DNA of 64,000 nucleotides from an uncultured virus (IMG/VR IMGVR_UViG_3300031555_004022) (IMGVR_UViG_3300031555_004022), one strand, 5' to 3'; counted from the stretch's first letter, positions 3,088 to 37,133 are shown. Numbers and translations are program-made. Notes: generated by a model from the sequence alone, not told the origin.

Positions 3088-3143
3088 TCCTCACCTTTTA
3101 TTATAAGCAGTTAAGGCGGTGCGACTTGCAAACCGTTCAGCCA

Positions 3144-3488
3144 TTAAATATTCCCTGTAATGTTAATACTATCGATTCCGTCGCTCAATTTGCCGGTAGC
3201 TCCGCACCAACTACAAGTGGCAATACGGGATTCTCCATTCCAACAGTTTAGTTTGCCACAACTGCAGTAAAAGAATCCTTTAGTGCCGCAGTGGGGACAT
3301 CCGGGGTATTCTTCTCCTTGGATCAACGCACCAGCAATGGTAGTTTTGTCATAATCTTCATTGAGAGCAGTCTTTTCTTGGATAGGAAATGCCCAGGTAT
3401 ATTTCCAATCGCGTCCGGTACGCTCAAAACGAATGCCATACATTTTCTTTGTCTGAGCGCATTTGCTCAGTGCAATAACAGCAATCAA
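3144..3488 (-). CDS. TerY-C metal-binding domain protein
   Basis: YPGCPHCG..GFFYCSCGKLNCW...CSWCG cysteine pattern; GGAGG RBS; TerY operon context. Confidence 0.8.
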   Translation of the reverse strand: MIAVIALSKCAQTKKMYGIRFERTGRDWKYTWAFPIQEKTALNEDYDKTTIAGALIQGEEYPGCPHCGTKGFFYCSCGKLNCWNGESRIATCSWCGATGKLSDGIDSINITGNI

Positions 3489-3500
3489 AATCTAACCTCC

Positions 3501-4568
3501 TTAAATAAACAAGGAAATGATAGATACAATAACGGCAATAGCAACGCCACCCAAGGCAATACCAAGCTTTGTATTGATGGACTTATTCATATCCTGACAA
3601 TACTTATACAGCTGATCCATGTTTGTGGCTTCGAGTTTGGCAACAAAAGCATCATATTTTGCTTCAAGCTGTTGACTCAAATCTACAACTTGTTTCTCCG
3701 TATTGGAAAGCTGCGCCAGGCGATCATCCATCATTTTCTCAAGTTCTTTCAAAAATGCACTGTACTGCTGATCGGAGTTATCCTTAATCTGTCCAGGAAC
3801 AGCTTGAATGCTTTCAACCACAGCTTGAAGCTGTTTGGCAAACGCTTCATTTGTTCTTGCCAAATCTGCTGCGTAGTGCTCTTGAATCTGCTTTAATCCT
3901 GCAATATGTTCTGCACGGTCTTTTTGCAACTGAGCATCCAAATTCTCGGGAACTTTTGTGATCGCTCCCGTCACAACGGCAATTCGAGCAGCATAACTTT
4001 CCATCGAAGAAGTCAGCGACTGAGAATAAGCAGCTTCAGCTTTTGCCAATTCGTCCATGTGGCGGCAGTGGGCAACTTCTGCTTGAGTTTCTAATGCACC
4101 CGGAATTTTAGAAATTGAGGCTTCTGCAGCTAACACTTTTTCACTTGTTCTTGCCAAATCTGCTGCGTAGTGCTCTTGAATCTGCCTTAATCCTGCAATA
4201 TGTTCTGCACGATCTTTTTGCAGCTGAGCATTTAAATTCTCGGGAACCTTTGTGATAGCCCCAGTCACATCGGAAACTCGAGTAGCATAACTTTCCATGA
4301 GATTTGTAACAGCTATTTGATAGGACTGATGTTCATTGCGAACTTCCTGCACAAACCCCTCAATCTTCTTTTGGAACAAATCACTCAGTTCTGGCGGCAG
4401 TTTTGACAGTTCGTCTTGCAATGCTTTGGTACGAACTTCAAAAGATTCTGTCTGTGTTTTTGTGAGCGAAGCGACAGACTTCAAAATCTTCATCAATTCG
4501 TTTGAGTCTTTTATATTTTTGTGGAACTGATCTATCTCTCGTTCCAATTCTTGAATTGTTGTAAGCAT
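3501..4568 (-). CDS. Coiled-coil protein with internal repeat and C-terminal membrane anchor
   Basis: Helical Q/E/A/K-rich body; duplicated TGAITKVPENL.AQLQKDRAEHIAGL.QIQEHYAADLART; C-terminal LGIALGGVAIAVIVSIISLFI. Confidence 0.75.
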   Translation of the reverse strand: MLTTIQELEREIDQFHKNIKDSNELMKILKSVASLTKTQTESFEVRTKALQDELSKLPPELSDLFQKKIEGFVQEVRNEHQSYQIAVTNLMESYATRVSDVTGAITKVPENLNAQLQKDRAEHIAGLRQIQEHYAADLARTSEKVLAAEASISKIPGALETQAEVAHCRHMDELAKAEAAYSQSLTSSMESYAARIAVVTGAITKVPENLDAQLQKDRAEHIAGLKQIQEHYAADLARTNEAFAKQLQAVVESIQAVPGQIKDNSDQQYSAFLKELEKMMDDRLAQLSNTEKQVVDLSQQLEAKYDAFVAKLEATNMDQLYKYCQDMNKSINTKLGIALGGVAIAVIVSIISLFI

Positions 4569-4585
4569 TTATGTTCTCCTCTCTG

Positions 4586-7500
4586 TTAGCAGAACTGCAT
4601 GTTCAGCTGATTTGCCAACATTCCATAGTAAACTGTATCCTTATCTGCGTTTTTGTAAAGAGCATCGCAAATACTGATTTCATCACTGCCGAATAGAGTT
4701 CCGGTTTCACTCAAACAGCGAATGGTTTCAAATCGTCCTGCAGCATTCAACTTGGCAAAAACTTTGCTGATTGCATCCATCAGCTCTTGATTTTGTTTAG
4801 TAGGCGTATTTCTGATAATACGCTCAAATCTACTCTTATCAAAACGCGCATACAGCTTCAAATTACCAAGGAACAAGAAGCAATCCAAATTATACATGTA
4901 GCGATTACTGTTGATTCGCTCTACATTAGTTAATGTGTTACGACCGATTCCTTGTGCGACCTTTTCTGCGATTTCCTTGAGCGAAAGTTTGGAATAGTAC
5001 ATTTCGTCGCTCTTAATTTCAATGAACGGCAAGGTAAAATACTCTCTGATCTCCTCTGTCACTTTCTCGCTATCGCTCTCTTTGTTCGCTTCTGCAAACT
5101 CAAGGAAGTCCAAGAACATTTCCTTGTGATGATAGAGGAACTTCGCATAATACCAGTCCACATAAATCTTGATTACTTCGGTAATGTCTGTTGCTCGTTG
5201 CGTTTTAACGATTTGTTCTCGGTTAGAGCCAAGAGAATCATAGTATTCTGTTGCGCGCTTCTTCATACGGCCCAAGCCACAGTCATTGCCCAGCGTCATC
5301 ATTATTTCGATTTGACCGCTGTTTTCGTCCGTAGAATAGGAATACCAGTCCTTAATGAAGCCTATAACATATAGCATGTATATGTATTTCTTGGCCATGT
5401 CAACAGTTGCGAGAGGGTACTTCCGTGTGTTGATATCGCGACCATTCCGGTTCAAATCGTCGTAGATTTCCATGATTTGCCCGAGCAAGTCTTCTTTGGA
5501 GTCGATGTTGCTGTTGAGCTTTCGATAACAGTCGGAATAATCGTTGCCGATATCATTGAGAAGTCGAGCGATGTCAGGTATCTCAAGTTCGCGTTTTATC
5601 AAAATTGGAGGGACATTTTCCGGAACAGGTTCGAGATAAAACACATAGGAGTTTACAGCTTCATTGGCTCGTCCAGCTCGTCCGATCTCTTGAACAAATT
5701 CATTCTTTGATACGGGCAGACCGAAGTGGATGATGTTTTGAACATTCGGCAAATTGATACCAATGCCAAGTTCTTCACTTGCAACCAATACCTTGCACTT
5801 CTCGTCCGCAAACAAATGATATGCGTATGTGTTTTCTTTTTGGAAAACATCTGCCTCATAGCCAATCGCTTGGGCGACTTGGAATGAGACCTCATCGTTC
5901 TTGGTAAAAACGAGAGTTCGTTCATTTCTTCGGATCTGCTTACCTACGACTTCACACACTCTTTCTATCATCTCATCAAAGCTATGAACCGCTTGGAAAT
6001 GATAAGAAATGTTGTACTTTTCAAATGCAATAGGCGAGAAAATGTTTTGCTGTGGAATTTTCAACTGTTGCTGAATATCCTCAACAACCGTATAGTTTGC
6101 AGTTGCAGTAAAGCCGAGGAAGGTAACTCTATCTAAGAACTTGTTCAAAAACTTCGAGAGCATCAAATACTCCGGGCGGAAATCGTGCCCCCAGTTGGAA
6201 AGGCAGTGAATCTCATCCAATACCACATAGGAGATCGAGGGACCGGGAGCCACCTTGGTTTCATTCAGGATTCGAGACTGCTTATTCATTATGAGATTAT
6301 GTCCGCTATTGATGTACCGACACTTTACCAACAAGTGCCTATTCTGGAATGTGGTAGGGGTGAGGTACATCAAGCTGTTACGCATCTCAAATTTACTGAA
6401 ATCATTATCTGTTGTCAGTTTGAGATGAGATACATTATCCATGTGATGGAACTTTTTTAAGTTTCTAATCTGATCGTCAATCAGAATCTCTGTCGGTGCC
6501 AAAATGAACATGGGCAGAGGTTGCAATAGCGATGCAAAATAGAAAATCAAAGACTTACCGCTGCCGGTAGGCATGATACAAATAGAGTGACCATTTGAGC
6601 CAAGCATGTTTTTCAATGCAATGAACTGACCCTCTTTGAATGTATCAAACGGAGATATCTCGCCAAGTAAATACTCAAGATCTGGAAGCAAATCTGTGTC
6701 GAGCTGGTAGTTGATTTTCTCTCCAAGCCAAAGCTCACGAGCATTACAGGGCACTTTGTTTTCTTCAATGTAAACACCGTTGATCTTCTTATCCAGAGAT
6801 ATCTTGATTGCATTTTTGCCTTGGGGAACTCTTTCAAGAGTATATTTCTTGCTGACCCGCATGAGGCGCAGAAACCGAGCGACATAATCATTGATTATCG
6901 CGATGGCTATGTCCAGTTCTTCGTCCTTACCAGCATAAATTAAATCAAGATTCCGACCAACCATACCATTCTTTATCAGCTGAAGGATAATCATCATCAA
7001 CCGGAACACGCGCTGATAATTTATCTGGAATGTAGTGGATATGGTGTTTAGATAATGGGGATAGTCCTCCGGTGTGATGCAGCTGTTTCTAATCAGATAG
7101 TTGTAGACCAAGGCGAAAACAGTAGGTGCTTCGCTACAATGCTTTTCGCTGATGCCACAAATATAGAAACCGTTGTCCGTGTTACCCACGCCACAAGGGA
7201 TGTATATTTTGCCTTGGATTTTATTCAACTGGACATTTGTGTAATAGTCAACTTGGTCGGACTTATCTGTAAAGTCAATCGCCGTTGGTTCGGAATGATC
7301 GTCATGTGAACTTGGAAGTTCCAAATCTGCCCACGGATCATCCTTGCTGCCAAAGAGCTTTTCCTCTTTCTCTTTATCCAACTGTGCTTGTGCTGCCTGC
7401 GTCTCTCTAATAACAGCGCCATCAACTGCAGCAATCCACTGATCCACAGCCCAAGTTGCCGTATCTTCAAGCATGGAGTGTTGCTTAATCAATTTGTTAA

Positions 7501-7693
7501 TAGCATTGCTACGTTCAAGATTGTTGAGCGGAAAATGCGCTTGGATTAATGTAACGATACCAATATCATATGCACTCATAAGTGCATTGATTTTGGGAAT
7601 GTCGTTATTAAATGCGTCACTCAAAATTGCCTTTGTAGACTGTCTTTCTATGAGAGTGGCAGCATGACCAAGCAATATCTGATTCAGCTTCAT
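4586..7693 (-). CDS. RecQ-like SF2 helicase with long N-terminal extension
   Basis: MPTGSGKS, DEIHC, WGHDFRPEY, TATA and QEIGRAGR motifs. Confidence 0.9.
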   Translation of the reverse strand: MKLNQILLGHAATLIERQSTKAILSDAFNNDIPKINALMSAYDIGIVTLIQAHFPLNNLERSNAINKLIKQHSMLEDTATWAVDQWIAAVDGAVIRETQAAQAQLDKEKEEKLFGSKDDPWADLELPSSHDDHSEPTAIDFTDKSDQVDYYTNVQLNKIQGKIYIPCGVGNTDNGFYICGISEKHCSEAPTVFALVYNYLIRNSCITPEDYPHYLNTISTTFQINYQRVFRLMMIILQLIKNGMVGRNLDLIYAGKDEELDIAIAIINDYVARFLRLMRVSKKYTLERVPQGKNAIKISLDKKINGVYIEENKVPCNARELWLGEKINYQLDTDLLPDLEYLLGEISPFDTFKEGQFIALKNMLGSNGHSICIMPTGSGKSLIFYFASLLQPLPMFILAPTEILIDDQIRNLKKFHHMDNVSHLKLTTDNDFSKFEMRNSLMYLTPTTFQNRHLLVKCRYINSGHNLIMNKQSRILNETKVAPGPSISYVVLDEIHCLSNWGHDFRPEYLMLSKFLNKFLDRVTFLGFTATANYTVVEDIQQQLKIPQQNIFSPIAFEKYNISYHFQAVHSFDEMIERVCEVVGKQIRRNERTLVFTKNDEVSFQVAQAIGYEADVFQKENTYAYHLFADEKCKVLVASEELGIGINLPNVQNIIHFGLPVSKNEFVQEIGRAGRANEAVNSYVFYLEPVPENVPPILIKRELEIPDIARLLNDIGNDYSDCYRKLNSNIDSKEDLLGQIMEIYDDLNRNGRDINTRKYPLATVDMAKKYIYMLYVIGFIKDWYSYSTDENSGQIEIMMTLGNDCGLGRMKKRATEYYDSLGSNREQIVKTQRATDITEVIKIYVDWYYAKFLYHHKEMFLDFLEFAEANKESDSEKVTEEIREYFTLPFIEIKSDEMYYSKLSLKEIAEKVAQGIGRNTLTNVERINSNRYMYNLDCFLFLGNLKLYARFDKSRFERIIRNTPTKQNQELMDAISKVFAKLNAAGRFETIRCLSETGTLFGSDEISICDALYKNADKDTVYYGMLANQLNMQFC

Positions 7694-7817
7694 AGGCTCA
7701 TCTCACTATCCGGATCGTACTCCTGGTATTCAAATCTCTATTTTAGAGGAGTAATTTCCAAATTAATTATTAACATACATCGTTCTCTTGTTGTACCTTT
7801 GATCATAATAATCGCGC

Positions 7818-7849
7818 TGATGGAAACAGCAAATGATCTGTTTCCATCA
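7818..7849. promoter_or_regulatory. Intergenic stem-loop inside the operon
   Basis: TGATGGAAACAG-N8-CTGTTTCCATCA, 12-bp perfect arms. Confidence 0.5.
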
Positions 7850-7870
7850 AAAACGATTGCTTATTGATTC

Positions 7871-9220
7871 TTATTCGCCGACATCAGCGGGATTGGTATG
7901 CTCTTCTGATGAATGTACGCAGTCTTCTGAAAAGCGAATTTCGTCTTCAGAGTATACCCCTGTATGAACAATTTCGTCACTAATTGGGGTGATAGTTTCA
8001 TTCGCACTGAAATCTTTAGTGTCTTCCGACGAGGGTACAATGGACATATCGTCAGCACAAGTTAATTCTGCTTCAAATATGCCTCCATCAGATGCATCTT
8101 CTGCTAAGCTACACTGGTATGCAGCAATAGCGGTTGATAGTGCATTTTCAGCAGCTTCAAGACGTCTAACGGCCTCCTCTTGAACACGGTGAGCGGTATC
8201 AATTGAAAGTTGAGCCTCAGATGCTTTCTTCTCACAAGTTTCTACATTCAATCTGGCTTTGCTCAAAGCGGACAATATGTAGTCTTGTTTTTCTGCTGCA
8301 AGCACCACATCTCGATCAGCCTTTTCGCAAGAAGCCTTTGCATTAGAGTATTCGCACTGGGCCTTCAGAACTTCTATGAAAGGCATAGAAAGGGCTGTAG
8401 ATACAATACCTGCAATAGAAACATCATCACCGCTACCTTTGCGCGAAAGTCCTGGCAGAAATGCTTTAATCTCAGCTTCACCTGTTTCACGACCATACTC
8501 TGCGAAGATTGCGAGAATAGAGCGATAGAGGACATACATTTCCTCCGTGTTGGCATAGGAATCATCTATGCCGTCGGTTCCCATCAGTGTTGCGACAGGA
8601 CATTCCTTTGTAAAATAGTATCGGAATTCTTCTATTGCTTCGGAATCACAGATAGAGGTGGTGATGTTCGCTTGGCAATCCTCATCCCACGGGATTGGCT
8701 CACCCATGGAACCATCCTGTGAAATGCATACACACTTGCCGTCTCCAATCTGCAGGCCGAACCAGTAATTTTTAGTCTGGCAGGCAGCGATCAAGGTAGT
8801 GCCGTAAGCCTTTTCCTGTCTTTGGCCAGACAAATATCTTTTCTTATACTTTTCAGAAACTTTAGACAGTTCTTCTTCCGAAAAAGGATACTTTTCCAAA
8901 TCGGCATCAACAGCCGCATACCAATTAGCCAGGATATTTTTTGCCAGTTGCTCCAAATAGGAATCACTGTCTGCAGAAATATCAATGGCACTTTCTTCTA
9001 CGGTTTTCACGAACTCTCTAACAGCGGTAATCGTAGCTTCGACAGCAAAACTCGATCCTCTATCCGTTCTTGGATAATTGTCGCTCCCATGTCCGTCAGC
9101 AACAACAACGACCGCCATTGAATCGTCGGAATAGCAGCCAGAAGAGTCTTGGCATACCTTGTCCGATTTGATGTGATTGTATCCTTGTTCGGAAAAAGCG
9201 AAATCATATGATGTATTCAT
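7871..9220 (-). CDS. PP2C-family Ser/Thr phosphatase with coiled-coil and acidic tail
   Basis: CQDS, VADGHGS, YGTTL, QIGDG, TDGI and GDDVS motifs. Confidence 0.9.
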   Translation of the reverse strand: MNTSYDFAFSEQGYNHIKSDKVCQDSSGCYSDDSMAVVVVADGHGSDNYPRTDRGSSFAVEATITAVREFVKTVEESAIDISADSDSYLEQLAKNILANWYAAVDADLEKYPFSEEELSKVSEKYKKRYLSGQRQEKAYGTTLIAACQTKNYWFGLQIGDGKCVCISQDGSMGEPIPWDEDCQANITTSICDSEAIEEFRYYFTKECPVATLMGTDGIDDSYANTEEMYVLYRSILAIFAEYGRETGEAEIKAFLPGLSRKGSGDDVSIAGIVSTALSMPFIEVLKAQCEYSNAKASCEKADRDVVLAAEKQDYILSALSKARLNVETCEKKASEAQLSIDTAHRVQEEAVRRLEAAENALSTAIAAYQCSLAEDASDGGIFEAELTCADDMSIVPSSEDTKDFSANETITPISDEIVHTGVYSEDEIRFSEDCVHSSEEHTNPADVGE

Positions 9221-9241
9221 TGCTTTCCTCCGAAATGGGGT

Positions 9242-10003
9242 TTACCAATCTCCCCAGCCGCTATCATCAACCTTGATAGGATTGCCGCTTGAACCAGCCT
9301 CCTGAGAAATTTCTTCCTTAACCTCTTTGACGATATTTGCAGAGTCTTCTTCGGGGGTAGTCTCCACATCAGAAGTCTGCTTGCTGTGGCTTTGGAACTC
9401 GGACGCACGAACACTAACCTTGCGAATGAGAGCCTTCAGCGTGTGCTTATCGTTGACCGCAATAACAGACTCGGGAGTGCCGGTAAAGGTGGCAAGAACA
9501 TTTTTGTCTGCATCTTCACCGATAGCAATAGCGATCTTGATAGCATGCTTGAACCAATTGTTCTTCTTCAGCTGTTCCAGACCCTTTTCCCAATTATCGG
9601 TAGGACCACCATCGCTGAACAGGAGAATGACAGGAGCATATGCACCAGTCTGAGATTCAAGGAACTCTTTTCTGGATAACTTCTTATCCAGCTCGGTGCA
9701 TGCGGCGCCGAGATCGGTCAAACCATTGGCATGAAGATCGTTCCAGATTACATCGCCAATGCCGATAGGTCCGGAAGAAGGGGTGATCCAGGAGCAACCG
9801 CTGGAGAACTGCATGATAGCAACGCGGATCTCAGCATCGTCATTAGCGGTGGAGATGTCGGGCAAGTCCACAGTGATTGCTTCTTCCATAGCGGAGTTTA
9901 CGGAGCCGATCTTGTCGCCGGTCATACTGCCAGAAGTATCAACGACATAGAACAAGGTCATAATTTTACGGGGGGAAGGCGTAACTTGATCTAACAGTGA
10001 CAT
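9242..10003 (-). CDS. terY: TerY-like vWA domain protein
   Basis: MIDAS motif DTSGSM, G.TDLG, LFSDGGPTD. Confidence 0.85.
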   Translation of the reverse strand: MSLLDQVTPSPRKIMTLFYVVDTSGSMTGDKIGSVNSAMEEAITVDLPDISTANDDAEIRVAIMQFSSGCSWITPSSGPIGIGDVIWNDLHANGLTDLGAACTELDKKLSRKEFLESQTGAYAPVILLFSDGGPTDNWEKGLEQLKKNNWFKHAIKIAIAIGEDADKNVLATFTGTPESVIAVNDKHTLKALIRKVSVRASEFQSHSKQTSDVETTPEEDSANIVKEVKEEISQEAGSSGNPIKVDDSGWGDW

Positions 10004-10021
10004 GATTTATACCTCTCTTTT

Positions 10022-11341
10022 TTATATTTTCATCGTTGCTGTAGACTGATTGTTTCCGAAGAAGTCGATAACGAAGCCATCCTTAATTGGAACTACGCTT
10101 CCCGGAGCCAAAGGCTTCTGACTTCCATCAGGCAGGTTAATCTTCCATGTATAAGTGGAAGTGTTGCGGAGACCTAGCACCTGCGGATTCTGGGGGTTAG
10201 CTACGATTTCACCGGCGATAGTTTCAATATCTTCCAAAGTGGAATCGATGTGCCATAAGTAAACTTTCATGCCGTTGTAAACAGGCAACTGATAGTTCTT
10301 AAACAATAGTGCAGCTGGTTTGTTGATCTTTTTTTTGCACTCGAAGCATTCGTTTACGCCCTCTGCAGTATAGAACATTTCATTCTTACAGTAAGGACAC
10401 TTGCCGGTTTCCGCTCTCAAGCGGAAGAACGCATCCAGCCATTCCTTTTCAAGCACGCGAGCCTTCTTTTTGTGCATAACCTCTTGGCTGAAAGCACGAA
10501 CAAAGAGATCGCGAATGTATTGAGGATAGATGTTCCAGAACAGCTTTAAGTTTCTGTCAGTTCCGGGAATCGGTCTATTACGCATATCATTGGGAGCATA
10601 GACGAAAATAGGTTCGCTGCCGTAATACTTCTTTTCGAGTTCCTTAGTCATGCAGGGAGGTGTAGAATACTTACCCTCCAATGGATGATTGATAAACAAC
10701 AGTCGGAACAAGACAACTGCGAGAGAAAATCGGTCGGACTGTTTATCCGGATCAGATTTAAGAGTAACGATCTCCGGAGCCATCCAACGCTGCTTGCCCA
10801 TAATGCCGAGGTTTGTACCATACGGAGATACATTATCGTTGTCGCAGATCAGAACTTTGCCAGTGGTCGGATTGATGAAGAAATTACCGTTGTTGATATC
10901 TTGGTAGCTGTAACCTCTGTTATGCAATTCTCTGAACGCCTGAATAATATTGATCGCAGCAGTAGAGATTGCGTTAAAGGACTTGAAACGAACCTGCTGT
11001 TTCTTCTTAGAACCAACAAAGAAGTTGGTCAGCTCCTCATATCCTGCAGGACGGATCTCCATAATGTAACCAAAGGAGCCATTCTGCACTTCGGTAATAC
11101 CCAGCGGCCACAGAAATGCCTCTGTAGGAGCACCCTTTGCAATGTTGTTTTCAAGGTTTGTGTAAAACTCCTTCTCCTTGCCCTTGAAAGATCCATTATG
11201 ATACCACTTCAAAGCATATTCCTTGCCATTGTAAGAAACCTTATAGACAGTACCTTGACCACCTGCGCCAAACTCTGCCAATATCTTTGTGTCACCGCCA
11301 TTTTTCATTTTGACGGTATCGCCAATTTTCATAACACCCAT
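10022..11341 (-). CDS. Ser/Thr protein kinase with Zn ribbon
   Basis: GAGGQGTVY, ALK, YQDINNGN, CDNDN, WMAPE, DRFSLA; CPYC...CFEC. Confidence 0.9.
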   Translation of the reverse strand: MGVMKIGDTVKMKNGGDTKILAEFGAGGQGTVYKVSYNGKEYALKWYHNGSFKGKEKEFYTNLENNIAKGAPTEAFLWPLGITEVQNGSFGYIMEIRPAGYEELTNFFVGSKKKQQVRFKSFNAISTAAINIIQAFRELHNRGYSYQDINNGNFFINPTTGKVLICDNDNVSPYGTNLGIMGKQRWMAPEIVTLKSDPDKQSDRFSLAVVLFRLLFINHPLEGKYSTPPCMTKELEKKYYGSEPIFVYAPNDMRNRPIPGTDRNLKLFWNIYPQYIRDLFVRAFSQEVMHKKKARVLEKEWLDAFFRLRAETGKCPYCKNEMFYTAEGVNECFECKKKINKPAALLFKNYQLPVYNGMKVYLWHIDSTLEDIETIAGEIVANPQNPQVLGLRNTSTYTWKINLPDGSQKPLAPGSVVPIKDGFVIDFFGNNQSTATMKI

Positions 11342-11383
11342 GTTTTATTTTTCCTCCTATATTAGAACTGTGCTTTCGTATGT

Positions 11384-12652
11384 TTATTGCGGCTTTTCTA
11401 TCAGCTCAAATTTGGCTTTGTGACTTATTGCCCACTTATGTGCATAGGAATCTCTATAGCACTCTATATGGATGTCCGAAAGAATGTTAAAGAAAGTATC
11501 TGCATCTATTTTTGTGACACTTTCTGGAATAGTAATTCGTGTCAACGACCAACAATTTGCAAATGCATCCTCTTTGATTTGAACGACTCCATCTGGTACA
11601 ATAAAGCTACCAAAACCGCAACAATAGAAAACTTCCTGTTCCAAAATCTTTAAGCCTCGTGACAAGGTGACATTGGTCAAATCCGTACAATACGCAAATG
11701 CTCTATATTCGATATGCTTAACGCTATCTGGAATACTAACTCGATTTAACCCTTTGCAATCATAGAAAGCAGAAGCTTCGATAGCTGTTACACCGTCTGG
11801 AAGAGCAATGCTTGCAATAGCTTTGCATCCACTAAAGGCTTCGCTTTGTATGGTGTTGATACCTTCCAAAATTGTCACATTTGAAAGCTGCTTGCAATTT
11901 GAAAAAGCTCCTTTTGAAACAGCCCCTATGCTACCCGGTAAAACAATACTCCGTATACCGCTACCAACAAAAGCATAGTTTCCAATGAACCTAATGCCCT
12001 CTGGAAGCGAAATTCGTGATAGTGCCTTGCAGTTTTTGAATGTGTTTTCGCCAATCGACTCCAATCCCTCCGGCAAGGATACATCTTTTAGTGCTTTGCA
12101 CCCCATAAAGGCATTGCTCTCTATTCTTCTGACCCCTTTAGGTACAACAACAGATTCAACATTTATTCTGTCGGAGCCTTTCGGCTTTGTATCTCCTAAA
12201 GCCGTGCTACCAATACTGATAACTGTTTTGCTGTCAACGCAATCCGGGAAAATGATTTGTGTTGGGAGTTTGCCCTTATATGCGATAAGCTCTACCGTGT
12301 TATTCCCAAGATCAACATATTCCCACTCTGTTGCTTGAGGCACCACATTATTAGGAGGTGGTGCTACTTGAGGGGATAATTGAATACTTGTCGCACTTAC
12401 GCCGAAAGCATCAGCCCAAATCAAAATAGCCTCTTGCGAATACTGTCCTGTAATGCCGTACTCATTCTCAATTTGTGCGATGAGTCCTTGCATCTCATTA
12501 GGAGCTATGCTTGTCTCTGCTTTGATTTTGTTTGCAACACCACATTCAAACAGTATTGTCAGAATGTTTACCACCCTTTTTTCGGAAGGGTATGTATCCA
12601 TAAGAATAGACTTAAACGACGCCCTGCTGTTCAAGCAGTTTGGATGTTGCAT
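11384..12652 (-). CDS. BspA-like leucine-rich repeat (LRR_5) protein; the likely original start at 12676 is interrupted by TAG
   Basis: Repeated LP.G...I...AF..C..L units; N-terminal helical domain; no signal peptide evident. Confidence 0.85.
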   Translation of the reverse strand: MQHPNCLNSRASFKSILMDTYPSEKRVVNILTILFECGVANKIKAETSIAPNEMQGLIAQIENEYGITGQYSQEAILIWADAFGVSATSIQLSPQVAPPPNNVVPQATEWEYVDLGNNTVELIAYKGKLPTQIIFPDCVDSKTVISIGSTALGDTKPKGSDRINVESVVVPKGVRRIESNAFMGCKALKDVSLPEGLESIGENTFKNCKALSRISLPEGIRFIGNYAFVGSGIRSIVLPGSIGAVSKGAFSNCKQLSNVTILEGINTIQSEAFSGCKAIASIALPDGVTAIEASAFYDCKGLNRVSIPDSVKHIEYRAFAYCTDLTNVTLSRGLKILEQEVFYCCGFGSFIVPDGVVQIKEDAFANCWSLTRITIPESVTKIDADTFFNILSDIHIECYRDSYAHKWAISHKAKFELIEKPQ

Positions 12653-12690
12653 CTAAATTGATTTCAAATCAATCATCTGTCATACCCCTA

Positions 12691-13188
12691 TCAGATTAAC
12701 TTCAAAACGATGTGTGGCAGGTTTCCGTCGGGCACAAACAATTTTAAAGTCTCTTTACTGAACCGGAACTCGATGCAGTTTGCATAAGGAGTAACCGCTA
12801 CGAGATCATCCGTCTTGCGGTCGAATCCATCAGCACCACCAACAAAAATGATTCTCTTGGTTGTGATGTAGAGAATACCTATTATGGTCGAGTATTTCAC
12901 ATCGTCTACGTATTCAGAGTTGCCACCACCAACGTGGACGCGTGTCCCTTTGAACAATCCGGGCATACTGTAGCCGGTATTCTTACGAATTCGCTTTTTG
13001 TTTACAGTTCTCTTTTCATAAATGGCACGATCTGCATAATGGCAGGTTTCCCCATTCTTCAAGAACAAATAATTCGGTTCAAGTGTAGGCAACTGCCCTC
13101 GGAGGATTTGCTGTCTTGCTGCGTCTGGCAAAACGCTTGGAACAGTTGGTGTCGTTGATTGTGGTTTCAAGAAATCAAGAAAACCCAT
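12691..13188 (-). CDS. Hypothetical protein (possible PH-like fold), first gene of the operon
   Basis: AGGGG RBS; GILYITTKRIIF motif reminiscent of bacterial PH/GRAM-like domains. Confidence 0.6.
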   Translation of the reverse strand: MGFLDFLKPQSTTPTVPSVLPDAARQQILRGQLPTLEPNYLFLKNGETCHYADRAIYEKRTVNKKRIRKNTGYSMPGLFKGTRVHVGGGNSEYVDDVKYSTIIGILYITTKRIIFVGGADGFDRKTDDLVAVTPYANCIEFRFSKETLKLFVPDGNLPHIVLKLI

Positions 13189-13437
13189 TATTTTTCCCCT
13201 TCGTGTATTTTATATTTAACAACCTGATAATTTGGCAGAGTTTAATTCGTTTGCAATTCTAAGAACAGACATATGTGAGTAGTAATGTACATCTTGTGCT
13301 TAAATCTAAAGAGGAACTACGCAGAATTTTTCTCTTTAATATAGCATATCATTTTTTTGGAAAAAAAGCAATGGAGATCCTACAATTGTAAGCGACCTTT
13401 TGTCAAAATTGAATGTTTTTAACAATGCGCCGGAAAT

Positions 13438-13869
13438 TCATAAAGTTAGGCTGATAACGATCTTCTTTAAAGCACCTGATTTTTTCGCGAATTTGGCTGC
13501 TCCACCCCATGAGTGGGAGATGTAGGTAACAACATAGTCGGACTGCCTGAGCATCCAATTGTTTCGCCATGAGATGGCGTAACGGGGATGGACAGTTTCG
13601 ATTCCCTCCGGGAGCATGGTGTCGGAGTAATCTTCGTATTCTTTTAGCTTGCCGGGCATGTAGGCTAGCACTACAGCATAGGTAATCCTTGGGTACTCCT
13701 TTTTGAGTTCTCGCAAAGAATGGCGTACAAGGGAATCGAATTGTCCATGGTTTCCTACATAGAAAGTATCTACATCATGGTTGGTTATGAGGTCAATCAA
13801 TACCTCACGTAATATCGGTTGTATGGTTTGTGGGCAGTCTCTGTGACCGAAAAAAGTACATGCTTTCAT
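13438..13869 (-). CDS. SLOG/YspA-like (DUF1273-like) protein
   Basis: CTFFGHR start, FYVG..G.FD, RN.WM...SDYVV.Y....GGA. Confidence 0.7.
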   Translation of the reverse strand: MKACTFFGHRDCPQTIQPILREVLIDLITNHDVDTFYVGNHGQFDSLVRHSLRELKKEYPRITYAVVLAYMPGKLKEYEDYSDTMLPEGIETVHPRYAISWRNNWMLRQSDYVVTYISHSWGGAAKFAKKSGALKKIVISLTL

Positions 13870-15889: not shown

Positions 15890-16399
15890 ATGGGCGAAAG
15901 TAAAAGCAAAGGAACCTTCCTGAAGGAGAACAGCAAGGTAGTTGGCTATATGGTTTATCCAAGGTTCTTAATGGGTTTGGAACTGAATGAAACTGCCAAG
16001 CTGATTTATGTCCTGCTGCTAGATCGGGCGAGGCTATCCATAAAACAAGGAGGGTGGGCGGATGAGGAAGGAAATGTTTATATTTACTACGACATCAAGA
16101 GCCTATCTGCCGACAGTGGAAAAAGTGCCGGAACCGTGAAGGCAGCGTTGAAAGAGTTGGAGAAGGCTGACCTAATCTTCCGGGCAAAGCAGGAGGTGGG
16201 AAAGCCACGAAGAATCTATGTAAAGACGAGGTCAGAAAACTGTCCCTCGCCGTGGATAGATTCTTGGCCCCTTGGTGGACAGAAAACTGTCTCTCACGGG
16301 GACAGTTTTTCGACTCCATACAATACAATAGTAAAAACAAATAGAACAAAAACAAATATATCAAGAAATTATTCATATGGGAAAGGAGAGAGTTTATGA
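15890..16399 (+). CDS. Replication initiator A N-terminal (winged HTH) domain protein
   Basis: AKLIYVLLLDRARLS...W.DE.G.VYIYY...LKELE..DLI...G.P.RIYV. Confidence 0.8.
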   Translation: MGESKSKGTFLKENSKVVGYMVYPRFLMGLELNETAKLIYVLLLDRARLSIKQGGWADEEGNVYIYYDIKSLSADSGKSAGTVKAALKELEKADLIFRAKQEVGKPRRIYVKTRSENCPSPWIDSWPLGGQKTVSHGDSFSTPYNTIVKTNRTKTNISRNYSYGKGESL

Positions 16400-17238
16400 T
16401 TCCTGTTTTAGAAGCATTCACTGTGGAGACTGACAATGAGCTCAGAGAAGACGAGTATCGAAATGACATGGGGTTGATCTGTTGTAAAAACTGCCATTCC
16501 CTCCGGCAGATCACATTGACTGTTGGAGATAAGCAGATCAGCCCTCGTGTTTTATGCAGATGTCAAGAAGAGGAGCGAGATCGAATGGAAGCAGAATGGA
16601 AAGCCCGAAGACGGCGAGAGGAGATTGAACGGAATCGCAGTATTGGTCTTACGGATCCTGTAATTGGGAAGCACACCTTTGAGAATGATCTGGGCTACAA
16701 TCCTCTCGCTATGGAGATTGCTCGAAACTATGTGGAGCACTGGGAGGAATTCACGCAGAATTCTCAGGGGCTGCTCCTGTGGGGCGATGTCGGAACCGGG
16801 AAGAGCTTTCTTGCAGGCTGTGTTGGAAACGAGCTGCTGAATAGAGGCGTCCGGGTTCTGATGACTAACTTCTCCCGTCTGTTGAATCGACTGACTGATA
16901 TACAGATGGGAGATCGGAATGGATTTATTGACAGCCTGAACAGCTTTGAATTACTGATCCTTGACGACTTGGGGATTGAGAGAAATTCGGAGTTTGCCAA
17001 GGAACAGATATTCAGCATCATCGACAGTCGCTACCGTAGCGGACTGCCTATGATCGTGACCACAAACCTGACTTTGGACGAACTTCTGAATCCGGCTGAC
17101 TTGTGGCGAAAACGAGTTTACGACAGAGTTTTAGAGCGAAACATTCGGGTCTGTGTGAACGATCATAATATCCGAAAAATACTCTCTGAAAAGGCAATGG
17201 CGCGAGGAAAGGAGGTGTTGACCTATGGTAAGGAATAG
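16396..17238 (+). CDS. DnaC/IstB-like AAA+ ATPase (helicase loader)
   Basis: GDVGTGKS, LLILDDLG, IIDSRY, TTNL. Confidence 0.85.
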   Translation: MIPVLEAFTVETDNELREDEYRNDMGLICCKNCHSLRQITLTVGDKQISPRVLCRCQEEERDRMEAEWKARRRREEIERNRSIGLTDPVIGKHTFENDLGYNPLAMEIARNYVEHWEEFTQNSQGLLLWGDVGTGKSFLAGCVGNELLNRGVRVLMTNFSRLLNRLTDIQMGDRNGFIDSLNSFELLILDDLGIERNSEFAKEQIFSIIDSRYRSGLPMIVTTNLTLDELLNPADLWRKRVYDRVLERNIRVCVNDHNIRKILSEKAMARGKEVLTYGKE

Positions 17239-17254
17239 ACCATGGAGATGTCTT

Positions 17255-17320
17255 AACAAGCACTGGATTTGCTTGTGCAAATCCGCTTGTCCTGGGCTTG
17301 CCGCCCCTGAAACCCCGCAG
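17255..17320. promoter_or_regulatory. Putative oriT
   Basis: GGATTTGC-TTGT-GCAAATCC inverted repeat (17265-17284) then TTGTCCTGG, resembling a MOBP TATCCTG nic motif, just upstream of mobC. Confidence 0.5.
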
Positions 17321-17334
17321 AAAGGAGGACGAAT

Positions 17335-17694
17335 ATGAGAAAGAGAAACCGTCGGGTAGAAATCTATTTTTCGGACGAAGAATATGAGGAATTGATGGAG
17401 AAGGTAACAGCCTCCAAACTCTCAAGAGAGCAGTTTTGCCGCATGGTTTTGAATGGGGCGAAAATCAAGGAAGCACCACCGGCTGAGTTTTATAAACTGA
17501 TCACGGAGATACGAAGAGTAGGGGTACATCTGAATCGCATTCTTTGCAAAGCTGAAGCAGGAGGCATTTTGGATGTGCCGCTGATCCGTGAGAGCATAGA
17601 GGAGCTACATGCTACACAAAAAATGCTTTACGACACATTTCGAAATGAAGTACCGAAAAGAAAGCACAACACAATGAAGGAGGAAACTAAATGA
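17335..17694 (+). CDS. mobC: MobC-like ribbon-helix-helix relaxosome accessory protein
   Basis: RKRNRRVEIYFSDEEY...L..EIRRVGVHLNRI pattern. Confidence 0.7.
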   Translation: MRKRNRRVEIYFSDEEYEELMEKVTASKLSREQFCRMVLNGAKIKEAPPAEFYKLITEIRRVGVHLNRILCKAEAGGILDVPLIRESIEELHATQKMLYDTFRNEVPKRKHNTMKEETK

Positions 17695-18542
17695 ACAAAG
17701 CGAAAGCAGAATATTTATCTGTAGACCAATTAAAGCCCTTTGAGGGGCAACCCTTCCAAGTGAAGGACGACGAAGAAATGGACCGGTTGGTCTGGAGCAT
17801 TATGACCCAAGGACTGCTGACTCCTTTGGCAGTCCGGCCTCTCGGCAGTAACGAATATGAGGTGATCTCCGGGCATCGGAGATTGCATGCATGCAAAAAA
17901 GCAGGGATCGAGACGGTCCCTGCTTTAGTTTATCCTATGAGCCGCGACGAGGCAGCGGTGGCCTTGGTGGACAGTAATTTACACCGGGAGAAGCTGCTAC
18001 CAAGCGAGAAAGCATGGGCTTACAAGCTGAAAATGGAAGCCCTGAAACGGCAAGGTCAACGTGTGGATCTAACTTCGTCCCAAGTTGGGACGAGGTCAGA
18101 CGAGCTACTTGCACAGCAAACGGGAGAGAGCCGAAATCAGGTACAACGCTACATTCGTTTGACCAATCTGATCCCCGGCATTTTAAGAATGGTTGATGAA
18201 GGCAGGATCGCACTGACACCGGCTGTTGAGATATCATATCTTCGGGAGCAGGAACAGGCAGAGCTTCTGGAAACTATGGAGAGCGAGGAATGCACGCCTT
18301 CCCTTGCCCAAGCCATACAGTTGAAGCAACTTAGCCAAAGTGGGGACTTGGGCATAGACAGAATCTTCACCATCATGGGTGAGAAGAAGGGCAACCAGAA
18401 GGAAAAACTCAGTTTTTTCCGCGACGATATCAGTCGCTATTTCCCGTCCCACTTCACCGCCGCAAAAATGCAAACCACCATTATGGAACTACTGAAAAAT
18501 TATCAAAGAACATGGAAAAGGAGAGAACTAAATGACCGATAA
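17691..18542 (+). CDS. ParB/Spo0J-family protein
   Basis: GLLTPLAVRP...YEVISGHRR, VDSNLHRE. Confidence 0.85.
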   Translation: MNKAKAEYLSVDQLKPFEGQPFQVKDDEEMDRLVWSIMTQGLLTPLAVRPLGSNEYEVISGHRRLHACKKAGIETVPALVYPMSRDEAAVALVDSNLHREKLLPSEKAWAYKLKMEALKRQGQRVDLTSSQVGTRSDELLAQQTGESRNQVQRYIRLTNLIPGILRMVDEGRIALTPAVEISYLREQEQAELLETMESEECTPSLAQAIQLKQLSQSGDLGIDRIFTIMGEKKGNQKEKLSFFRDDISRYFPSHFTAAKMQTTIMELLKNYQRTWKRRELNDR

Positions 18543-18813
18543 TCAGAGAATCGATATTTTGAAAATCAAAGAGGCCTCCCAGCGAGCACGGGAGTGTGGC
18601 ATGGCGATCAGCGAATATACCATTCGCCGTGCCATCCGTTCCGGGCAGTTGCCCTGCCGTATCATTGGCCGCACCTATTTGATTAGTTGGAAGAAACTTG
18701 TGGAGTGGGCTACCTGCGCAGATGGCGGAGATATTCCCACTGACCTCGCACATTTGCACCGAGAGCCTTCTGCCGGTAGAATATCTGTAGAAACGACACA
18801 CGAAGGGAGATAA
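18532..18813 (+). CDS. Excisionase-like HTH protein
   Basis: ISEYTIRRAIRSGQLP...IGRTYLI; directly upstream of the integrase. Confidence 0.7.
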   Translation: MTDNQRIDILKIKEASQRARECGMAISEYTIRRAIRSGQLPCRIIGRTYLISWKKLVEWATCADGGDIPTDLAHLHREPSAGRISVETTHEGR

Positions 18814-18819
18814 CATACT

Positions 18820-20211
18820 ATGCCATCGATTGAAGCAAGAAGAAACGCAAGCGGCAAGATCACAAGCTACCGCATCACGGTTTCCGACGGAACGGATTAT
18901 AAGGGCAACCCCATTCGCCACCGCATCTTATGGACACCTCCGAAGAAGGTCATGACAGAGAGGCAGATGGAGAAAGAGGCTTATGCCGCAGCGGCCAAAT
19001 ATGAGGAGCAAATCAAAGTAGGCTACTACATCGACAACAATCAGACTTTCTGCGAATATGCCCAATATGTCATGGAACTGAAGGAGCGAACCGGGATCAA
19101 AACATCCACCTTGGATCGTTATTTGGAGATGCTGCCCCGAATTTATGAAGCCATCGGACATATGAAGTTGAGCCAGATTCGTCCCCAACACTTAAACGAA
19201 TTTTATCGCCACTTGGGACAAATGGGAATGCGTGCGGACAGTCAGCGTGCCGTTCCAAAAAGAATCTTCCCCAAGAGATTCCATGCCTTACAAGTCTCTC
19301 AGGCAGACCTTGCAAGGGTAGCAGGAATAGGCTACCAAACCATTAACACTGCCCTCAAGGGAAACGCCATCAAAATGGATAAGGCAAATGCCATTGCAGA
19401 GGCTATGGGGATGACCTTTTCAACTTTGTTTGATGTGAAGGAAAATTTGAAGCCCTTGTCAGCAAAGACAGTCCGGGAGCACCATCGGTTAATCTCCACG
19501 ATCTTAGCCCAAGCGGAGAAAGAAATGCTGATCCCCTACAATCCCGCACAAAAGGCCACACCGCCGAAGGTCGAGAGAACCGTTCCGGAATATTATCAAC
19601 AGGAGGAAATGGACGAAATTTTAGAAGCTCTGGAAAAGGCGCCGGTTCGTTGGAAAGCCATTTCTTATGTTCTGATCGATACCGGGTGTCGCCGTGGAGA
19701 AGCTTTAGGGCTAAAATGGGACAAAATCGATTTGGAAACAGGCTTGATCGTCATTGACAGATCCCTACTGTATTCCCCATCCAAGGGAATCTATGAAAGT
19801 ACCACGAAAACCAACGATGTCCGCGCAATGATCCTGGCACCGCAAACCATAGACGCTCTGAAGGCATGGAAAGAAGAATATGAGCAGTGGAAAGAAATCA
19901 ACGGCGACCGCTGGAAGAATTCTCCCTATGTCTTCGTCCGGGAAGACGGAGGCCCCATGCACCCGGATAGCGTTACAGATTGGTTGGCGAGATTCAGCAA
20001 GGACAATGTCTTGCCCCACATCCATCCTCACGCATTCCGTCATACCGCAGCTTCTACCATGATTATGAACGGTGTAGATGTGGTAACCGCCGCAGCAGAA
20101 ATGGGCCATGCCAGCCCCTCCACAACTGCCAATATCTATGCCCACCAATTCGCCATTGCAAGAGCCAAAGCTGCCAATGTTCGTGGCGGCGTGTTCGCTA
20201 AGCGGAAGTAA
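18820..20211 (+). CDS. Tyrosine recombinase/integrase with embedded XRE-like HTH
   Basis: TGCRRGE, HAFRHT, MGH and IYAH catalytic motifs; internal SQADLARVAGIGYQTIN segment. Confidence 0.9.
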   Translation: MPSIEARRNASGKITSYRITVSDGTDYKGNPIRHRILWTPPKKVMTERQMEKEAYAAAAKYEEQIKVGYYIDNNQTFCEYAQYVMELKERTGIKTSTLDRYLEMLPRIYEAIGHMKLSQIRPQHLNEFYRHLGQMGMRADSQRAVPKRIFPKRFHALQVSQADLARVAGIGYQTINTALKGNAIKMDKANAIAEAMGMTFSTLFDVKENLKPLSAKTVREHHRLISTILAQAEKEMLIPYNPAQKATPPKVERTVPEYYQQEEMDEILEALEKAPVRWKAISYVLIDTGCRRGEALGLKWDKIDLETGLIVIDRSLLYSPSKGIYESTTKTNDVRAMILAPQTIDALKAWKEEYEQWKEINGDRWKNSPYVFVREDGGPMHPDSVTDWLARFSKDNVLPHIHPHAFRHTAASTMIMNGVDVVTAAAEMGHASPSTTANIYAHQFAIARAKAANVRGGVFAKRK

Positions 20212-22369: not shown

Positions 22370-22419
22370 GGGTGTTGTAATATGGTGTAAAAGATGATAC
22401 CATAAAAAGGGTGATAGAT

Positions 22420-30386: not shown

Positions 30387-30623
30387 GTTAAAACCTCGCT
30401 TCGCCCCGCCCGACTGCCGGACGGTTGCGTATAGTCGTATAGGGTCACCGGGCATGAAACAGCACATAACCGTCAAGCGCTGCCATGCAAGAAGCGTCGT
30501 CCGCCCGGACCCGTCGGGGCGTATATTTACCTTTTCAGGAAGGTCACGGTCTCCTTCTCTCCTTCTCGGTTCTGATTTCGCTTTCGCTACTTTGTCTGCC
30601 AGGGAAGAAGCCGAACGTCGGGG

Positions 30624-37116: not shown

Positions 37117-37133
37117 TGCTCACACTCCCTTCT

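Follow-up and report, generated by a model that had tools for sequence, protein, structure and literature searches.

The DNA analysed here is a 64,000-nucleotide stretch (the window) from an uncultured virus (IMG/VR IMGVR_UViG_3300031555_004022). Between positions 3144 and 13188 its minus strand carries eight genes that make up one widely conserved, horizontally mobile cassette and not a chance juxtaposition. The cassette contains a TerY-P-like triad, consisting of a Ser/Thr kinase, a von Willebrand factor A (vWA) protein resembling TerY and a PP2C phosphatase, together with a leucine-rich repeat (LRR) protein, a helicase with a RecQ-like core, a coiled-coil protein, a stand-alone TerY-C protein and a small protein without a family. 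The LRR protein and the helicase begin with the same small N-terminal domain (NTD), a previously unnamed adaptor domain which we regard as the most valuable lead of the analysis. The known part of the cassette is TerY-P linked to DNA processing; the new part is the NTD adaptor, which ties together the helicase and a set of swappable partners.

The eight-gene operon

The original prediction described a run of eight co-oriented and closely spaced genes in this region, and all eight open reading frames (ORFs) are found on the minus strand. The predicted content (LRR protein, kinase, vWA, PP2C, RecQ-like helicase, coiled coil and TerY-C) is matched by the Pfam assignments. The operon opens with g1 (12691–13188), which encodes 165 residues without a family, and continues with the 422-residue LRR protein g2 (11384–12652; LRR_5, E = 2.4e-62), in which the NTD occupies residues 1 to about 95 (about 12368–12652) and is followed by BspA-type leucine-rich repeats. 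The 439-residue kinase g3 (10022–11341; Pkinase, 4.1e-15) ends in a four-cysteine zinc ribbon and a β-rich domain of about 95 residues. The TerY-like vWA protein g4 (9242–10003; VWA, 1.5e-08; VWA_2, 1.5e-07) has 253 residues, an intact metal-ion-dependent adhesion site (MIDAS) and an acidic C-terminal tail ending in tryptophan. It is followed by the 449-residue phosphatase g5 (7871–9220; PP2C_2, 9.2e-35), whose PP2C domain spans residues 13–255 and is extended at the C-terminus by a coiled-coil, acidic and variable region. The 1035-residue helicase is encoded by g6 (4586–7693; DEAD, 7.4e-17; Helicase_C, 8.8e-14; ResIII). The seventh gene, g7 (3501–4568), encodes a 355-residue coiled coil that has repeats within it and is tail-anchored by one transmembrane helix at the C-terminus; only weak matches of the coiled-coil type were found for it. 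The last gene, g8 (3144–3488), has a TTG start and encodes a stand-alone TerY-C metal-binding protein of 114 residues (TerY_C, PF15616, 2.9e-13; 50.5 bits, with the cut-off at 28.4); TerY-C was reportedly defined by Anantharaman et al. in 2012.

From g1 to g8 the intergenic gaps are 38, 42, 18, 21, 177, 17 and 12 bp, the 177 bp gap lying between g5 and g6. Upstream of g1 on the same strand is a promoter-like site (13377–13406; TTGACA, 18 nt, TAGGAT; 10 of 12 matches). The region holds 30 such sites, compared with 23.7 (s.d. 4.5) in shuffled sequences, which is no excess, and this site is only a suggestion for a promoter.

In a 19-residue Kyte–Doolittle window the hydrophobicity of g7 peaks at 2.79 at residue 337 of 355, while the maxima of the other seven proteins all lie below 1.8. 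Since g7 alone has a hydrophobic segment, and has it at its C-terminus, we predict that the LRR protein is cytoplasmic and that g7 is tail-anchored, in agreement with what had been proposed for both. The first protein of the operon, g1, gave no family match in Pfam, NCBIfam or PADLOC and no match of any kind in a PDB profile search. Its homologues gave sub-threshold matches to bPH_3 (0.014), GRAM (0.1) and Vps36 GLUE (0.064), and the Atlas leads for g1 were bPH_3 (0.85) and GRAM (0.76); the protein possibly has a PH/GRAM-like fold.

Conservation and mobility of the cassette

With one genome taken per species, scanning gave 79 loci, of which L001–L031 carry the long type of helicase and the rest ordinary RecQ cores. 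Members of the cassette were counted in L001–L031 by tblastn and phmmer with the proteins of the window. The kinase–vWA–PP2C triad lies beside the helicase in 22 of these 31 loci (L001–L008, L010, L012–L015, L017, L021, L022, L024–L027, L029 and L030), and in L016 the contig stops right at the start of the kinase gene. The triad is absent from the other eight: L009, L019 and L020 run into contig ends, and in L011, L018, L023, L028 and L031 the available DNA holds no triad. Homologues of g7, recognized by sequence similarity, directly follow the helicase gene in 22 of the 31 loci, and a hydrophobic C-terminal helix is present in 21 of these 22 (22 of 23 with g7 of the window included). The co-occurrence of helicase and coiled coil with the triad in other genomes, which the original prediction had left to be checked, is supported by these counts, 22 of the 31 loci for the triad and 22 of the 31 for the coiled coil.

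The remaining members are more variable. By tblastn, g1 homologues are present in 15 of the 31 loci, and in L008, L010, L017 and L025 they lie at or near the kinase gene despite a rearranged gene order. TerY-C homologues occur in 13 of the 31, at the end of the operon, and the closest of them align from residue 1. The LRR protein is not a constant member, as LRR_5 repeats occur in seven of the 22 triad loci and L003 has no LRR gene; it belongs to the system because it carries the NTD of the helicase, and elsewhere its place is taken by RCC1, tubulin-like, PIF1 or unknown modules.

At the nucleotide level the similarity to L001–L004, the four nearest relatives, is limited to the operon. It starts at positions 3142–3146 and ends at 13188–13190, and the flanks are unrelated. 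In L001 the DNA homology runs across all eight genes. Among close relatives the cassette generally shows 77–88% DNA identity, with two exceptions: the repeat part of the LRR gene (11379–12392), and the PP2C tail with the intergenic stretch that follows it (7710–8110), are not conserved at the DNA level in L001–L004. The NTD part of the LRR protein, in contrast to its repeats, is 81% identical to L001 in DNA. Because the triad adjoins the helicase in 22 of 31 loci and the similarity stops at the operon edges, the eight genes are best described as one mobile unit.

The hosts of these loci include Oscillospiraceae, Lachnospiraceae, Acutalibacteraceae, Bacillaceae, Syntrophaceticus, and metagenome-assembled genomes of Bacteroidales and Anaerolineaceae; loci with triad and helicase come from Bacillota, Bacteroidota and others. 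The distribution is sparse, with the kinase type (E ≤ 1e-40) present in six of 401 sampled Bacillota genomes, the centre genome included. Sequencing runs that match words of the cassette are DNA from animal faeces and gut metagenomes, and seven of the 20 runs listed hold at least half of the words; no RNA run is among those listed as matching.

A common N-terminal domain in LRR protein and helicase

The first 95 or so residues of the LRR protein and residues 10–103 or so of the helicase fall into a single family of domains. When the ORFs of the 31 loci were searched in one pass of phmmer, the N-terminus of the LRR protein found the N-termini of helicases in L021 (1.3e-6), L011 (1.5e-6), L007 (4.2e-6) and L016 (2e-4). 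The N-terminus of the helicase in turn found proteins other than helicases in L008 (1.2e-9 and 6.6e-5), L014 (1.5e-6) and L001 (7.6e-6 and 2.6e-5). Iteration with jackhmmer united 49 NTDs. In 25 of the 31 loci, among them all 22 with a triad, the helicase contributes one. A single residue of the NTD is near-invariant, an aspartate (Asp19 in the LRR protein and Asp26 in the helicase). In an AlphaFold2 model of the helicase the NTD forms a helical bundle of its own, with a disordered linker behind it. It gave no significant fold match in the PDB, and no Pfam model matches it.

Accessory proteins with an NTD are found in 13 of the 31 loci, with one to three in each. Their partners include LRR_5 repeats (seven loci), LRR_4/8 and RCC1 repeats, a tubulin/FtsZ GTPase, a PIF1 helicase and domains without a family. 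When a profile of 37 NTDs was run against 1.84 billion cluster representatives, 3,428 proteins matched at E ≤ 1e-3, 1,027 of them reaching E ≤ 1e-10, the domain being almost always at residues 10–100 or so. Partner domains were identified with Pfam in 116 of the best 150 representatives, the 34 shortest (all of 173 residues or fewer) being left out. In these 116 proteins the NTD is joined to LRR_5 (51), RCC1 (four), DUF6273 (three), Lcl_C (two), a DEAD helicase (two) or no recognized family (43), and once each to Sel1, FtsK/SpoIIIE, Endonuclea_NS_2, SRA, HIRAN, S1, Lon_C, SBP_bac_3, PG_binding_1, Ltp and DUF7225. In none of the 116 does a Pfam family cover the NTD itself.

The domain is restricted to these loci. 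In four genomes with the cassette all of the NTD matches (two, two, three and two) fall inside the operon, and a genome with an NTD-less helicase has none. Across nine genomes every copy lies beside a triad except for two, which are on separate contigs of fragmented assemblies. In a tree of the domain a single change separates the NTDs of helicases from those of accessory proteins, which none of 500 label shuffles matched; support for this branch is weak (46/85). The accessory NTDs of L005 and L006 form one well-supported clade (99/96) despite their fusion to tubulin-like, LRR, PIF1 and RCC1 modules.

Architecture of the helicase

An AlphaFold2 model of the helicase was built from a 41-sequence alignment, with a pLDDT (predicted local distance difference test) score of 86.1 and a predicted template-modelling (pTM) score of 0.78. 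In this model the chain begins with the helical bundle (residues 1–114), which includes the NTD at residues 10–103 or so (7385–7666, minus strand). There follow a disordered linker (112–142), an α/β mid-domain without known relatives (144–335), the two-lobe RecQ-like core (340 to about 700), a winged-helix-like unit (733–800) and a helical C-terminal domain (807–1035). The Walker A residues Gly379-Lys380-Ser381, the Asp493-Glu494-x-His496 motif and Gln668, Gly671, Arg672 and Arg675 are invariant in all 41 homologues.

The helicase is RecQ-like in its core only. Against the NCBIfam model TIGR00614 (recQ_fam) it scores 162.5 bits, below the cut-off of 219.8, and against the recQ equivalog 148.5 bits, compared with a cut-off of 640.2. 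The PADLOC models PsyrT (1.5e-43) and DpdF (2.5e-43) both match over residues 340–690 or so alone. A PDB profile search found RECQ1 at 1.1e-49 over residues 339–720, and BLM, RecQ, RECQL5 and WRN match as well; the Foldseek match to BLM has an E value of 6e-17. With VIA the Z scores for RECQL5, RECQ1, WRN, BLM and DrRecQ are 22.7–20.9, compared with 17.1 or less for other superfamily 2 (SF2) helicases, and the D2-Zn-WH fragment of RECQ1 aligned to residues 558–954 of the model with a Z of 18.5. RQC and HRDC domains are typical of repair RecQ helicases. Families of RQC, HRDC and zinc-binding type were unmatched here in a general Pfam scan (E ≤ 0.01), which did not include a domain-level search.

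The first 340 residues were also modelled separately (pLDDT 82), and this model had no Foldseek match in the PDB at E ≤ 1e-3. The DNA-binding domain of ColE2 Rep was considered as a fold for the NTD and rejected, as its best VIA Z of 5.7 (86 residues aligned, root-mean-square deviation 4.1) is at the noise level for helical bundles. For the mid-domain (144–335) a limited search, against the named clusters of the Atlas, gave no usable match.

Public protein sets contain more than 100 full-length relatives of the helicase, with 46–95% identity and lengths of about 1,020–1,060 residues. In one relative (P0047) a Swt1-like HEPN domain takes the place of the NTD, and in another (P0097) a PIN_4 domain is added at the C-terminus; both are RNase-type additions to the helicase family. 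We also note two NTD-less relatives in other surroundings. One (L028, 40–8399) lies beside a 2077-residue DEAD+MZB helicase and a UvrD-like helicase, which are followed by a MORN-repeat membrane protein; the other (L031, 13105–14325) lies beside a Macro-domain protein.

Kinase, vWA and PP2C

The kinase and the PP2C look active and the MIDAS of the vWA protein looks intact, as does the catalytic apparatus of the helicase, since the catalytic, MIDAS, Walker A, DExH and motif VI residues are invariant. In the kinase, Gly25, Gly27, Gly30, Lys45, Asp148, Asn153, Asp167-Asn-Asp169 and Ala188-Pro-Glu190 are conserved in all 15 aligned homologues, as are the zinc-ribbon cysteines (Cys315, Cys318, Cys332 and Cys335) and, in the β-rich C-terminal domain, Gly390, Asn393 and Trp399. 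This C-terminal domain gave no significant PDB profile match, the best being S26 (0.15) and S17 (0.19), the latter an OB fold. An FHA-like fold, guessed from its motifs, found no support in the same search. The PADLOC models matched by the kinase are PD-T4-6, mad6 and Stk2.

In the vWA protein the MIDAS residues Asp22, Ser24 and Ser26 (DxSxS), Thr96 and Asp131 are invariant in all 22 aligned sequences, as is Trp250 of the acidic tail, which ends in sequences such as DDSGWGDW, DDNQW, NDNW and DDVW. The metal-binding motifs of the PP2C (Asp42-Gly-His-Gly45, Asp160-Gly161, Asp216-Gly217 and Asp265-Asp266) are invariant in 15 of 15 homologues.

Variants and accessory genes

Five further genomes were picked from the Bacillota sample by the kinase type alone. 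All five have NTD proteins, and these lie beside the triad in the three genomes in which one contig carries both. An NTD-helicase was found in only one of the five, where it is fragmentary and stands at the end of a contig; the remaining helicase matches are ordinary RecQ cores on other contigs. In L080 the order is NTD protein, LRAT/NlpC-P60, kinase, vWA, PP2C and two more NTD proteins. In L081 it is vWA, PP2C, kinase and a protein that joins an NTD to an FGE-sulfatase-like domain, with a TIR-Sel1 gene nearby. An NTD+RCC1 protein precedes vWA, PP2C and kinase in L082, and L083 and L084 are of the same type, split over contigs. Because such helicase-less variants exist, the helicase is frequent but not obligatory, and the core of the system is the triad with at least one NTD protein. 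The inclusion of the helicase in the original prediction thus holds for the 22 loci where it adjoins the triad and fails in four of the five further triad genomes, which have no NTD-helicase.

In L001 (4310–6001) one protein combines a vWA domain, 53% identical to g4, with an NTD and LRR_5 repeats; of the MIDAS residues, its vWA domain no longer has the serines, the threonine or the second aspartate. This fusion suggests that the vWA and NTD modules work together. Other recurring genes are a second vWA gene before TerY-C (three loci), a transglutaminase-like gene (three) and a stand-alone Endonuclea_NS_2 gene (two), and in L005 a MazF-type toxin gene follows the system. In L007 (2110–6470, a Neobacillus sp. 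chromosome) the kinase–vWA–PP2C–helicase set is preceded by an NTD protein and an additional vWA gene, and immediately upstream of these are genes for a 641-residue MotA/ExbB-like protein and for one resembling ZorB (PADLOC, 4.3e-70). This locus may represent a Zorya-type membrane motor joined to a TerY-P/NTD system.

To describe the neighbourhood, 84 flanking proteins within 7 kb of 17 triad loci were scanned with PADLOC. Clear defence neighbours are present at five of the 17: ZorB and PDC-M09A in L007, a type I restriction–modification system in L015, Wadjet JetABCD in L021, a type II restriction–modification system in L022, and a restriction endonuclease with a mad2-like methylase in L026. 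Marginal neighbours are IetA in L013 (5e-13) and WYL in L027.

Comparison with known systems

The TerY-P triad, as described in Bell et al. (2024; PMC11090510), consists of a vWA protein, a PP2C and a Ser/Thr kinase with a zinc ribbon. The stand-alone anti-phage form is credited to Gao et al. (2020) in PMC7699616 and PMC11090510, and in PMC4978471 and PMC11090510 Anantharaman et al. (2012) are named as the source for the association of TerY-P with modules for DNA processing, helicases and endonucleases among them; according to PMC4978471 the 2012 work also proposed that these modules may repair xenobiotic-induced DNA damage. The present cassette resembles TerY-P in its adjacent vWA with MIDAS and PP2C (21 bp downstream of the vWA gene), in a kinase with a C-terminal zinc ribbon, in its stand-alone TerY-C protein and in the linkage of a DNA-processing enzyme to the triad. 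It differs in the order kinase–vWA–PP2C, in its five further conserved genes, in a kinase that has a β-rich domain in addition to the zinc ribbon, and in the NTD adaptor, which links a RecQ-core helicase with swappable repeat and enzyme proteins. When compared with stand-alone TerY-P, the vWA protein matches the PADLOC TerY model at 0.0076 only, no model named for TerY-P matches the kinase or PP2C, and for the C-terminal OB fold of the kinase, a trait of stand-alone TerY-P, there is only the non-significant S17 match noted above.

The claim that this is an undescribed system holds in one respect, since no PADLOC-DB v2 system matches, and has to be narrowed in another, since the link between TerY-P and helicases had already been credited to Anantharaman et al. 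(2012). No paper pairing TerY with RecQ, or describing this gene set, was found in the literature searched, which did not extend to Anantharaman et al. (2012).

Type II and III-A CoCoNuTs, as presented in PMC11090510, also combine a TerY-P triad with coiled-coil proteins and a large helicase in one operon, and there too the triad is viewed as a signalling add-on to a nucleic-acid-targeting core. The present helicase is of the RecQ-like SF2 type and not a Upf1-like superfamily 1 enzyme, and its coiled coil is a tail-anchored membrane protein. Neither a McrB-like GTPase (CnuB), a McrC-like nuclease (CnuC), a Upf1-like helicase (CnuH) nor a HEPN protein (CnuE) was found in the cassette with Pfam, NCBIfam or PADLOC, and identity with a CoCoNuT was rejected. 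PsyrT and DpdF share with the cassette helicase two RecA-like lobes with RecQ-type motifs, but its NTD, mid-domain and C-terminal 330 residues have no counterpart in them. The PsyrT model is matched at positions 17–340 of 689 only, there is no match to PsyrA, and the SLOG-like neighbour of the operon (described below) is not conserved. No Dpd genes are present and the DpdF match is confined to the shared helicase core. The ZorA matches are weak and of the coiled-coil type (2e-6 or worse). PsyrTA, Dpd and Zorya were likewise set aside.

A kinase with a zinc ribbon and a β-rich domain, together with PP2C and a stand-alone vWA protein, is noted in actinobacterial GTPase systems in Kaur, Burroughs, Iyer & Aravind (2020; PMC7159879). 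The effector-associated domains (EADs) of NTP-dependent conflict systems, presented in the same paper, offer a parallel to the NTD: both are small helical domains, found on a core component and on adjoining stand-alone proteins with varied fused modules, and like EADs the NTD is non-enzymatic and restricted to its system, with lineage-specific clusters of paralogues (the clade in L005 and L006). Unlike the EADs of PMC7159879, the hub of the NTD is a kinase/PP2C/vWA switch and not a MoxR–vWA or GTPase core. The NTD is further distinguished by the lack of a match to any Pfam model, including any EAD model that Pfam may contain, and by the separate lineages of its helicase and accessory forms.

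Genomic setting

The cassette lies among genes of mobile elements. On one side is TnpV (2029–2400), within a mobile-element frame (309–2703) that also includes a fusion of a helix–turn–helix domain with a trypsin-like protease (309–1808). On the other side are RepA_N, an IstB-like ATPase, ParB and a tyrosine integrase (15890–20211). Next to these mobile-element genes are the chromosomal spo0A (21568–22338) and then a WYL/WCX regulator (22411–23460).

Directly upstream of the operon, also on the minus strand, is a gene for a 143-residue protein (13438–13869) with a weak YpsA/SLOG match (8.6e-4). As none of the 31 related loci has a counterpart, this gene is probably cargo of the element and lies outside the system.

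Further along the window (25000–60000) is a prophage with a CW_7/CHAP lysin, tail proteins, capsid, portal and terminase. In it a reverse-transcriptase gene (29118–30644, minus strand; RVT_1, 2.9e-15) adjoins a gene for a 1959-residue tail-fibre-like protein that ends in DUF6273 (31237–37116, minus strand), a layout that suggests a diversity-generating retroelement. DUF6273 is also a fusion partner of the NTD elsewhere. An open frame of 2021 residues antisense to the tail-fibre gene (31303–37368, plus strand) most likely arises from the composition of that long gene.

Proposed function and alternatives

In our view the cassette is a candidate anti-phage or anti-mobile-element system with swappable sensors, a phosphorylation switch and a helicase effector, and we put the probability of this reading at about 0.55. 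The NTD would dock interchangeable proteins, here the LRR protein and the RecQ-core helicase, onto the kinase/PP2C/vWA switch, and the tail-anchored coiled coil, with the possibly PH-like g1, would place the complex at the membrane. Recognition of a protein from a phage or another invader by the fast-diverging repeat protein would shift the balance of kinase and PP2C. The helicase would then be freed by phosphorylation, for which the disordered linker after the NTD is the most plausible target, and would work on replicating or invading DNA, with the result that the invader is excluded or the cell arrested. In other loci PIF1, FtsK-like, nuclease or other modules might act as effectors. Several features hint at an immune role of this kind. 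The LRR repeats have diverged while the NTD and the neighbouring genes remain about 80–87% identical; the helicase has relatives with HEPN_Swt1 and PIN_4 domains; accessory nucleases, defence neighbours and the TIR-Sel1 gene near L081 are found; and stand-alone TerY-P is reported in PMC7699616 and PMC11090510 to be anti-phage.

A number of observations weigh against this reading. No clear defence gene lies within 7 kb at 12 of the 17 triad loci scanned, and no family of a known system in PADLOC fits the cassette, the matches being to generic kinase and helicase models. Among the plasmid and phage records searched none covers 80% of the helicase query, and there were only matches to ordinary RecQ cores. 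A BLASTP comparison of the two NTDs of the window gave no match and they are 20% identical when aligned; the homology of the NTD was established through intermediates and profiles only. As the pair is so divergent and the NTDs of helicases and accessory proteins form separate lineages, a simple homotypic pairing of NTDs is not indicated by the sequences. A likely transmembrane helix stands behind the NTD in 17 of 149 representatives, and the fusions to SBP_bac_3, PG_binding_1 and Ltp, which are of extracytoplasmic type and lie behind such a helix, do not readily fit an intracellular sensor.

The alternatives can be weighed against the same data. A DNA-damage or chemical-stress module, in which a TerY-P switch responsive to stress from metals or xenobiotics controls a repair helicase of the RecQ-like type, would accord with the 2012 proposal as relayed in PMC4978471, with the presence of a MIDAS and of the metal-binding TerY-C domain, with the RecQ-like core and with those 12 loci that lack a clear defence neighbour within 7 kb. 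We consider it unlikely. The cassette is sporadic, as the six of 401 genomes with its kinase type indicate, it occurs in varied contexts and its similarity stops at the operon edges; its fast-diverging repeats, swappable modules and HEPN, PIN and nuclease relatives are traits of conflict systems and not of housekeeping repair, and Pfam did not detect RQC or HRDC in the helicase. The operon might also be cargo that serves its carrier element by excluding competitors, controlling the processing of the element's own DNA or causing addiction, and not by protecting the host. Its position between TnpV and the RepA_N, IstB-like, ParB and integrase genes beside the chromosomal spo0A is in keeping with this, as are the MazF-type toxin gene of L005 and the best PADLOC match of the helicase, PsyrT, which is the RecQ-like toxin of a toxin–antitoxin pair. 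This explanation seems to us rather improbable, since the closest loci differ in their flanks, so that the cassette is not tied to one type of element, and the plasmid and phage records searched yielded no relative; it also overlaps with defence, as the exclusion of other elements is itself defence.

The two remaining explanations concern the limits of the system. It is very improbable that the unit consists of the triad and helicase only, with the LRR protein, g1 and TerY-C as neighbours that have no relation to it. The variable presence of these three in the 31 loci (LRR_5 in seven, g1 in 15 and TerY-C in 13) is what one could cite for it, but the LRR protein and helicase have the system-specific NTD in common, g1 recurs near the kinase and TerY-C at the operon end, and the DNA homology with L001 covers all eight genes. 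We give hardly any credence to the cassette being a copy of a named system, whether stand-alone TerY-P (Gao et al., 2020), a Type II/III CoCoNuT, PsyrTA or Zorya. A triad with a helicase and a coiled coil is indeed found in CoCoNuTs, and the PsyrT, DpdF and ZorA models do match, but McrB, McrC, HEPN and Upf1-like components are missing, PsyrT and DpdF cover the shared core only, ZorA is weak, the sole PADLOC match to TerY is the marginal one given above, and five extra conserved genes accompany the triad.

Within the defence reading we tentatively entertain a broader view, to which we assign a clearly lower likelihood than even. The NTD would be a new family of immune adaptors and the TerY-P switch a plug-and-play hub for receptors (LRR, RCC1 and Sel1) and effectors, with phosphorylation timing when the effectors fire. 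RecQ-like and PIF1 helicases, an FtsK-like translocase, a tubulin-like GTPase and nucleases would be effectors bearing the same tag. Docking could use the MIDAS of the vWA protein to grip the near-invariant aspartate of the NTD, for which the two grounds are the conservation of this aspartate and the L001 fusion. Such a hub would be a bacterial counterpart, in its logic, of animal and plant signalling from an LRR receptor through a helical adaptor to a Ser/Thr kinase.

Few defence-associated modules of bacteria are as poorly understood as TerY-P triads. As the NTD marks the proteins that belong to the switch, it provides a testable wiring diagram of candidate sensors, switch and candidate effectors, and the modules fused to it in about 3,400 protein clusters are a catalogue of possible inputs and outputs of the system. 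If the defence reading is correct, a RecQ-like helicase effector under phospho-control would join the immune repertoire of gut Clostridia and Bacilli, and the NTD would take its place beside EADs and Death-like domains as a new family of adaptors. Should that reading fail, the data still define a conserved signalling module that is worth naming.

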